IMG/VR virus record: IMGVR_UViG_3300023179_000019
Strand: one strand, 5' to 3'
Length of the DNA: 64,000 bases
DNA from: a virus
Positions 134-10,987 of this stretch are shown here, in pieces. Positions within the stretch are counted from its first letter, which is position 1. Each line of letters begins with the position of its first letter. The translations under genes and the position numbers were made by a program. Below the pieces are notes generated by a model. It was given only the letters and a program-made list of their open reading frames with translations. It searched no databases and had not been told where the DNA came from.

Positions 134-348
134 AATATATTGCAAAACCTCGAATGTCCAATAATATTGGAATGAAAGAATTCGACAACCAACTTGATGC
201 GGTACTGTACTTAAACAGCGTATTGAGTGCGAAGGATGTCGATGGGGAGCGCTTTGATTACACCTATGTAGTACCGTCAGCATCTCCTAAGAACCTGCGT
301 AGGACAGTCGAGGAATACGTCTGGATAGGCAAATTAATTGTTGTTTAA
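130..348 (+). CDS. hypothetical phage protein
   Basis: 72-aa ORF, ATGA-coupled to upstream ORF. Confidence 0.6.
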   Translation: MKYIAKPRMSNNIGMKEFDNQLDAVLYLNSVLSAKDVDGERFDYTYVVPSASPKNLRRTVEEYVWIGKLIVV

Positions 349-400
349 TTACAACAAAATGGCAGAAATTGCTTGACTTATTTTGTGGTTGTGATACAGT
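338..400 (+). promoter_or_regulatory. sigma70-type early promoter with upstream inverted repeat
   Basis: TTGTTGT-N6-ACAACAA (338-357); TTGACT (373-378) -16 nt- TACAGT (395-400) preceded by TG; same layout at 2370-2430. Confidence 0.65.
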
Positions 401-433
401 ATTACTTCTTAACTTTTAAAAAGACTTTATACT

Positions 434-565
434 ATGATTAATTTTATGGCCGGATGTGTTCTTGGTTTTTTTGTTGCAACAATAGGTTTTACTGGAATCG
501 CAACATCTTTGGACAAAGGAATCGAAACAATTAAAAACACATCAATTACTGTGGATAAAAAATGA
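434..565 (+). CDS. small membrane protein (43 aa, absent from ORF track)
   Basis: MINFMAGCVLGFFVATIGFTGIATSLDKGIETIKNTSITVDKK; hydrophobic N-terminus; ATGA overlap with next gene. Confidence 0.6.
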   Translation: MINFMAGCVLGFFVATIGFTGIATSLDKGIETIKNTSITVDKK

Positions 566-10503: not shown

Positions 10504-10532
10504 TTGACAAAGTATAAATAATCCTGTATACT
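10504..10532 (+). promoter_or_regulatory. nested sigma70 and T4-late promoter of the tmRNA
   Basis: TTGACA-17-TATACT with TATAAATA (10513-10520) inside the spacer. Confidence 0.75.
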
Positions 10533-10539
10533 TAACAGG

Positions 10540-10918
10540 TATACAAGTTATTGCTGTATGAAGCAAAGAGAAAAGTGTTCTGGACGCGGGTTCGACTCCC
10601 GCCTGGTCCACCATAAGGAAGTTTGATGATTAACTTATTTCATGCGTTATGTTTTGCCGAAAAGTTGCCTTGGTATCTTGTTCCGGTAAAATATATTATG
10701 TGGGGATTGATTGAAATAGTGTTGTTCTTTCACAGAATCTTTATGATGGGCCAGTCATGGTTTCGACAGGGCAAAGAGTAACAGAGTGGACAGCACAGTA
10801 GGCGATGACTGTAAATCAAGCAAAACAAGTAAACGCAAACGATAGCGAATACAGATTAGCAGCCTAAACGCCGCTTAGGGTTTTTGGTAGTTTATCCTCG
10901 TAACAGAATTAAACTGCC
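10540..10918 (+). ncRNA. ssrA: circularly permuted (two-piece) tmRNA
   Basis: Acceptor piece first: T-arm GCGGG-TTCGACT-CCCGC then CTGGTCC-A-CCA (ends 10613). Coding piece starts GGGCCAG (10748), giving a 7-bp acceptor stem with G3.U70. Tag frame ANDSEYRLAA* at 10835-10867; 3' hairpin to about 10918. Outer ends approximate. Confidence 0.92.
10626..10781 (+). CDS. candidate 51-aa hydrophobic peptide in the tmRNA intervening segment
   Basis: AAGGA SD 10615-10619, ATG 10626, open to TAA 10779-10781. Confidence 0.4.
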   Translation: MINLFHALCFAEKLPWYLVPVKYIMWGLIEIVLFFHRIFMMGQSWFRQGKE

Positions 10919-10987
10919 TAAATAAAATTACTATCAACACACACAAGATGATAGTAAAACACATAAACACACACAAAGGAGATTAAA

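Follow-up and report, generated by a model that had tools for sequence, protein, structure and literature searches.

A tmRNA spacer that holds exchangeable small genes in many phages, and a candidate cassette that ends inside the tmRNA

The spacer as a slot for small genes

Comparison of 151 complete tmRNA genes with 107 distinct spacers shows that, as judged from conserved flanks, recognisable domains and substitution patterns, the spacer of this permuted tmRNA lineage is an exchangeable slot, which holds real small genes in many relatives of the virus described here. The ORF from which the analysis departs lies in the tmRNA spacer of the window, by which we mean the whole stretch of 64,000 nt of DNA from IMG/VR virus record IMGVR_UViG_3300023179_000019; all its coordinates below refer to the plus strand. 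The census set was assembled from two samples, one retrieved with a 26-nt pattern of the coding piece (at least 120 viral contigs) and the other with a pattern of CCA plus Shine-Dalgarno (SD) flank (78 more contigs), the second being biased towards SD flanks. G1 of each locus (10748 in the window) was placed via the complement of its own acceptor strand. By the definition used in this analysis, a cassette has an SD, as 5' arm, directly after CCA, its ATG follows 4-8 nt later, and its ORF occupies the spacer.

About 30% of the spacers in the unbiased first sample start with an SD (TAAGGAAG, TAAGGAG or TAAAGGAG) that is followed by an ATG and an ORF, and these ORFs range from 22 to 133 codons. 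Across both samples (107 distinct spacers) there are 35 families of SD-led ORFs, and 47 spacers are ORF-less short hairpins (median 80 nt). None of the sampled SD flanks precedes a broken ORF, and the RF04321 matches of ORF-bearing loci are full-length, spanning the ORFs. The spacer ORF of locus L135 is a thioredoxin (PF00085, 75 bits) and that of L011 carries a CxxCxxCC domain (29 bits). Low ratios of non-synonymous to synonymous substitution (dN/dS) are found for a family of 24-residue membrane peptides (0.05-0.4), the L053 family of 122 residues (0.11-0.26), the L062/L170 pair (0.13) and the spacer part of the L127 family, whose ORFs run on into the tmRNA (0.18-0.36 in deep pairs).

The spacers of the relatives consist of a hypervariable interior between two shared arms that pair with each other and co-vary, with 10.9 of 12 positions paired, versus 7.9 for arms mismatched between loci. 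In ORF-bearing spacers the 5' arm, read as RNA, is the SD UAAGGAAG or UAAGGAG, followed by ATG and a protein gene. At the other end, TGAT stands directly before G1 in 82 of the 107 spacers, and the slot thereby brings a stop codon of its own: 18 of the 35 families stop at the TGA of ...TTATGAT/GGG, a single base ahead of G1, another 12 supply a stop themselves immediately before the 3' arm, and the remaining 5, with the window ORF among them, run into the coding piece. As 30 of the 35 families end before the cut site, the non-stop state is no property of the system.

Some features of individual spacers may be recorded here. The permuted tmRNA of L135 is full-length, and its spacer of 269 nt encloses a complete thioredoxin gene (213-464, minus strand) with a WCGPC motif, whose C-terminus ...VSL* ends at the built-in TGA. 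The spacers of L093 and L115/L132 each hold two ORFs in tandem, and a further SD flank, AAGGAAGTTTTATG, belongs to the second ORF of L093, a hint that recombination at the flank allows cassettes to stack. The ORF-less spacers of L036, L006, L111, L042 and L010 contain fragments that look like a T-arm plus acceptor strand (e.g. GGGTTCGATTCCCCACCA) and resemble remnants of a second tRNA-like domain, at which ARAGORN calls no tRNA.

Exchange is also visible on the backbone of the window itself. In the flanks on both sides, loci L098 and L001 share 97-100% identity with the window; they differ from it over approximately 10585-10860, where they have another T-arm, acceptor stem and tag, and a 61-nt spacer without an ORF. 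A tmRNA of the L098/L001 type is found in an unrelated backbone in L048. DNA contigs of the lake run X3 have other sequence between 10619/10620 and 10738/10741, exactly at the arm boundaries, and run X5 contains the window backbone with a different spacer. The tract exchanged between the window and L098 reaches beyond the spacer and takes in the whole tRNA-like domain and the tag: the T-loop is TTCGACT in the window and TGCGAAT in L098, acceptor pair 6 differs, and the tags end in ...SEYRLAA and ...SQFALAA, respectively.

The permuted tmRNA gene of the window and the ORF in its spacer

The tmRNA locus of the window is a permuted two-piece tmRNA. ARAGORN finds a single permuted tmRNA in the window (10521-10958, tag ANDSEYRLAA*), the whole of Rfam model RF04321 (positions 1-213) aligns to 10552-10867 and scores 132.3 bits, where the cut-off is 47, and the betaproteobacterial permuted-tmRNA model RF01850 scores 99.6 bits against a cut-off of 84. 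As delimited by ARAGORN and Rfam, the acceptor piece (10552-10613) comprises a helix 2 strand, the T-arm, the 3' acceptor strand CTGGTCC and ACCA, in which the discriminator A is read at 10610 and CCA at 10611-10613. The 5' part of the coding piece (10748-10867) comprises the acceptor 5' strand GGGCCAG, helix 2 and the tag frame, ANDSEYRLAA* being encoded at 10835-10867. CTGGTCC-ACCA (10603-10613) pairs with GGGCCAG (10748-10754) to form an acceptor stem of 7 bp with G3:U70. The tRNA-like domain thus has its T-arm and an encoded CCA, and the tag frame is closed by a stop. In a diverged copy of the locus, 10604 T>A is accompanied by 10753 A>T, a compensatory change that keeps the acceptor pair.

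Upstream lies a sigma-70-type promoter of the pre-tmRNA (10504-10532; TTGACA, 17 nt spacer, TATACT), in which 11 of 12 positions match the consensus. Both L098 and L122 have kept it, and we infer that it is in use. A promoter scan found no minus-strand promoter at the locus. The neighbouring genes encode a gp32-like single-strand DNA-binding protein and, immediately downstream of the tmRNA, a gp33-like coactivator, and by their predicted products mark a T4-like phage. The window sequence is contained in metagenome runs from freshwater and lakes. In run X16, one metatranscriptome contig of a relative stops at CCA (10613), followed by 13 A, and may represent a polyadenylated or A-tailed mature acceptor piece, the CCA end being only a weak hint; the RNA runs X15 and X16 are Logan contigs with small shares, from which RNA ends, strand and level can not be read, and in which gaps in cover carry no weight. 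Other RNA-library contigs bridge tmRNA spacers, and may derive from precursor RNA or from carried-over DNA.

Between the two pieces lies an intervening segment of 134 nt (10614-10747; Rfam, sequence, relatives), which is predicted to be removed on maturation. It opens with the SD TAAGGAAG (10614-10621), which directly adjoins CCA and, to judge from the fold and the relatives, doubles as the 5' arm of the stem that guides processing. The ORF (10626-10781) has 51 codons and runs from ATG 10626 to TAA 10779-10781. Codons 1-40 (10626-10745) lie within the spacer, codon 41 (10746-10748) straddles the predicted RNase P site at 10747/10748, which is therefore within the ORF, and codons 42-51 (GQSWFRQGKE) come from conserved tmRNA sequence, the TAA ending 34 nt inside the mature coding piece. 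In the census of relatives, the 3' arm is recognised as TCTTTA plus the conserved TGAT (10738-10747). The built-in TGA of the slot (10744-10746) is out of frame for the window ORF, which reads ATG ATG GGC over the cleavage site, one base off. As it misses the built-in UGA and has no stop of its own, the ORF continues 11 codons into the coding piece, to what is the first in-frame stop of the conserved tmRNA sequence. It therefore lacks the usual cassette ending, be it the built-in UGA or an own stop before the 3' arm. Its beginning is that of a cassette: the start flank TAAGGAAGTTTGATG also heads the cassettes of L074, L062 and L053, TAAGGAAGTTTG-ATG matches their flank letter for letter, and with its SD arm, ATG spacing and an ORF that fills the whole spacer it agrees with the definition given above.

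The first-pass annotation, made from the letters of the window, had described this arrangement, and its coordinates, spacer length, SD after CCA, ATG and stop are exact to the base, as is its translation of the ORF. It had placed the SD in the stem extension of the precursor, and in the minimum-energy fold UAAGGA (10614-10619) indeed pairs with UCUUUA (10738-10743); the stop at 10779-10781 lies, as it had said, inside the mature piece, past G1 at 10748. Its deduction that the predicted cleavage would leave a 40-codon message without a stop is sound from the geometry. That such a spacer can code at all is supported by the many relatives in which the same slot holds real genes (thioredoxin; dN/dS of 0.1-0.3).

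The processing stem of the window is comparatively weak, with 8 of 12 arm positions paired against a mean of 10.9 of 12 in the relatives. Its weakness, together with the missed stop, could be a sign of decay. No other RNA family was found in the window spacer (Rfam at a permissive threshold), and a structured RNA element within it was considered and rejected, as the spacer alone folds no better than shuffles (z = -1.57).

Tests of the window ORF and the readings of its stop

Searches for homologues of the peptide returned no match among 1.84 billion representative proteins (exhaustive search), and the sole match in a word-indexed search of 5.8 billion proteins was an identical copy. Degenerate DNA motifs of the ORF had no match in contigs of viruses or metagenomes, searches of 190 related loci and the window by blastp, tblastn and blastn gave no homologue, and the peptide matches no PHROG family and no Pfam family (E up to 0.01), that of ArfA included. 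Identical copies of the ORF are present in the ENA contig L122 and in run X3, that is, in two further studies. Its codon score is -0.12 per codon, 2.5 SD below that of the phage's own genes (0.40 ± 0.21), and of the three frames its own scores best. When the interior is shuffled, 8-11% of the shuffles stay open, so that a chance origin of the frame, taken alone, is compatible with this test.

The only diverged copy is a contig of the X16 RNA library with a depth of 4. It has 1 synonymous and 7 non-synonymous nucleotide changes (replacements M25L, W26Y, I29L, V32G and H36Y), which are no milder than random (P about 0.18). The frame stays open, as it does by chance alone in 62-89% of trials, and TGG has become TAT by two changes that avoid TAG. 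All eight differences lie within 34 nt (10698-10731 in the window), while the preceding 75 nt are identical (P = 0.0005); this clustering may reflect a mosaic tract or uneven constraint. In the comparison of relatives for which the first-pass annotation had called, the frame is kept in this copy and the synonymous bias expected of a selected peptide is absent (1 versus 7). Nor does its view of the ORF as a selected membrane peptide find support, as there is no homologue and no synonymous bias, and the nearest phages with the same backbone have an ORF-less spacer. The predicted product of 51 residues is moderately hydrophobic. Averaged over 15 residues, its Kyte-Doolittle score peaks at 1.8 (residues 21-35), with E30, H36 and R37 in the hydrophobic stretch, and hydrophobic frames arise by themselves from T-rich DNA (43% T).

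The position of the stop varies between relatives. L122 has the window spacer in front of another coding piece, and there the frame continues to 75 aa. Within the family L123/L177/L183 the ORFs stop at +28, +37 and +52, and within L127/L129/L151/L169 at +69, +36, +33 and +12. We take the tail not to be selected, and both tail and stop to be incidental; run-through as such is, to judge from the substitution patterns, compatible with a working gene. A vestigial frameshift was sought in the window: the TGA frame is open over only 9 codons (TAG 10717-10719) and there is no vestigial stop at -12/-13, and for these reasons the ancestral frame is not reconstructible. The L122 contig (76-591) agrees with the window letter for letter as far as TTTCGACAGGG, beyond which it has the other coding piece, for which ARAGORN gives a tag of 29 residues, AKANTGEVTVSGKGVKFSARTVKAKSFAV*; downstream of its tmRNA lies a Gcw_chp gene, not a gp33-like gene. 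It may be a recombinant tmRNA or a chimeric assembly.

On balance, and with some reserve, we favour the view that the window ORF is an orphan or recently altered small-gene cassette in the slot, which is translated and has an incidental tail. The ORF would be transcribed from the strong pre-tmRNA promoter and translated on the uncleaved precursor, probably co-transcriptionally, while the SD is not yet closed off by the 3' arm. With a ribosome on the last codons of the ORF, the acceptor strand would be covered from G1 to about +50, so that no acceptor stem could form and RNase P could not cut until the ribosome had left. Translation and maturation would be mutually exclusive on any one transcript, and a transcript cleaved first would become a stop-less message of 40 codons ending ...AUGAU, a substrate for trans-translation. 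Release of the full-length run-through product in the normal way is possible only from the uncleaved precursor. It is less likely that the frame is non-functional, the spacer being only a processing hairpin, the ORF a chance frame behind the conserved SD-like arm or a decaying cassette whose stop went through a frameshift or out-of-frame recombination, and the peptide without a role. The lack of any detected homologue, the atypical codon usage, the 8-11% of open shuffles and the ratio of 1 to 7 in the sole variant all agree with this, as do the stem, weaker than in relatives, and a frame that misses either kind of stop found in 30 of 35 families; chance run-through frames occur in ORF-less hairpin spacers such as L019/L080, L021, L024 and L054, and near-identical phages do without this cassette. 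However, the SD, its spacing and the ATG are those of validated cassettes, and every other sampled SD flank precedes an intact ORF. The diverged copy, open and with TAG avoided, the identical copies in two further studies and the purifying selection on other run-through cassettes also speak against a non-functional frame.

The first-pass annotation had gone further, proposing a feedback sensor of processing or trans-translation, or a toxin-like peptide. On this proposal, which follows the logic of ArfA, the stop would be removed by RNase P by design, the peptide would be tagged by tmRNA and destroyed as long as processing and trans-translation work, and with their failure it would build up, acting as a regulator or as a membrane toxin. 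Processing of the arfA mRNA of E. coli is by RNase III cleavage. This mRNA is stop-less and repressed by trans-translation (PMC10107115), and it is the closest precedent for the proposal; in the window, too, processing within the ORF would remove the stop and create a substrate for tmRNA tagging. The cleavage site does lie within the ORF with the right geometry, and run-through is found in 5 independent cassette families, one of them under selection. Unlike arfA, however, the window ORF would be cut by the tmRNA's own maturation, its stop position is not conserved, activity of the truncated peptide is putative, and there is no similarity to ArfA or any other family. With a tail that merely reads conserved tmRNA sequence, that gives 75 aa in L122 and varies from +12 to +69 nt among close relatives, with an arrangement that 30 of 35 families avoid, with no selection signal on the peptide and with E30, H36 and R37 in its hydrophobic stretch, we consider such a device improbable. 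Neither the sensor nor the toxin finds support: the arrangement belongs to a minority (5 of 35 families), with a drifting stop and a peptide that shows no constraint.

Least probable of all, in our estimate, is that the peptide is a by-product and that the ribosomes themselves matter, holding the acceptor stem open over G1 to +34 and thereby timing or limiting the phage tmRNA. As the ORF ends 34 nt into the coding piece, a ribosome that reaches the stop has to open the acceptor strand and some of helix 2, and the SD arm and 3' arm could close only after its passage; yet this maturation gate would be pure conjecture, and it is not generally needed, since the spacer of near-identical phages has no ORF and the majority of cassettes have their stop ahead of G1. 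There is also a small chance that the run-through cassettes form a working class of their own, in which the pre-tmRNA serves as messenger first, the ribosome delays maturation and a message that is cut early is tagged by the phage tmRNA. In that event, peptide and tmRNA output would regulate each other within one gene.

Relation to known systems

In the order of acceptor piece, CCA, intervening segment and coding piece, in the G3:U70 of its tRNA-like domain and in a tag frame ending LAA, the window locus resembles the known two-piece tmRNAs (RF04321 and RF01850; the Caulobacter and betaproteobacterial types). It differs from those described in that their segment is a discarded spacer, whereas the window and about a third of the relatives carry an SD-led ORF there. 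The 2025 tmRNA database paper, with 79 phage sequences, names as unusual spacer contents only a tRNA-Ala gene and a repeat element, and neither Hudson et al. 2014 nor the paper on phage Melnitz (PMC9004378) mentions spacer ORFs. A search of the literature outside subscription journals found no published description of ORFs in tmRNA spacers. The presence of genes in the spacers of phage tmRNAs is real and apparently undescribed. The spacers of two-piece tmRNAs are treated as discarded sequence. If they are messengers, then exchangeable small phage genes are expressed from the precursor of a stable RNA, under its strong early promoter, and are missed by annotation pipelines because they lie inside an RNA gene.

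Among bacterial transcripts, SgrS/SgrT, RNAIII/hld and SR1/SR1P are dual-function RNAs that encode a small protein, with both functions on one mature molecule. The precursor considered here would likewise be one transcript that is both messenger and source of a functional RNA, but its coding part is a piece excised from the precursor of a stable RNA, and the window ORF overlaps the mature RNA by 34 nt. As for the slot, Arbiol et al. reportedly described in 2010 exchangeable small-gene cassettes of T4-type phages that lie between promoter/stem-loop repeats (PeSL), and the T4 tRNA cluster contains free-standing genes. Shared with the tmRNA slot are short conserved flanks, a large number of unrelated small ORFs per site and a content that differs between otherwise near-identical genomes. 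The tmRNA slot differs in that its flanks are the arms of a processing stem and the site is inside an RNA gene.

Where an ORF runs through, each transcript must choose between translation and maturation, and the substrate created is one for the very RNA being made. These cases would thus offer a compact natural system for competition between ribosome and RNase P, and for trans-translation. The window alone has a modest yield, being one orphan and putative member, in which the stop inside the tmRNA proved not to be conserved.

The setting of the gene also has parallels. In the OM43 phage Melnitz (PMC9004378), as in the window, a two-piece ssrA lies directly upstream of a gene for a gp33-like late-transcription coactivator. 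No cultured phage with a spacer cassette was found; ARAGORN gives two-piece tmRNAs for Xanthomonas phage BUDD and Stenotrophomonas phage Marzo, and the spacer of BUDD, the sole cultured-phage spacer read, has no SD-led ORF. Approximately 30 tRNA genes adjoin the tmRNA of L011, and a COG2908 RNA motif (RF02939, 70.9 bits) is found approximately 2 kb upstream of the tmRNA of L108.
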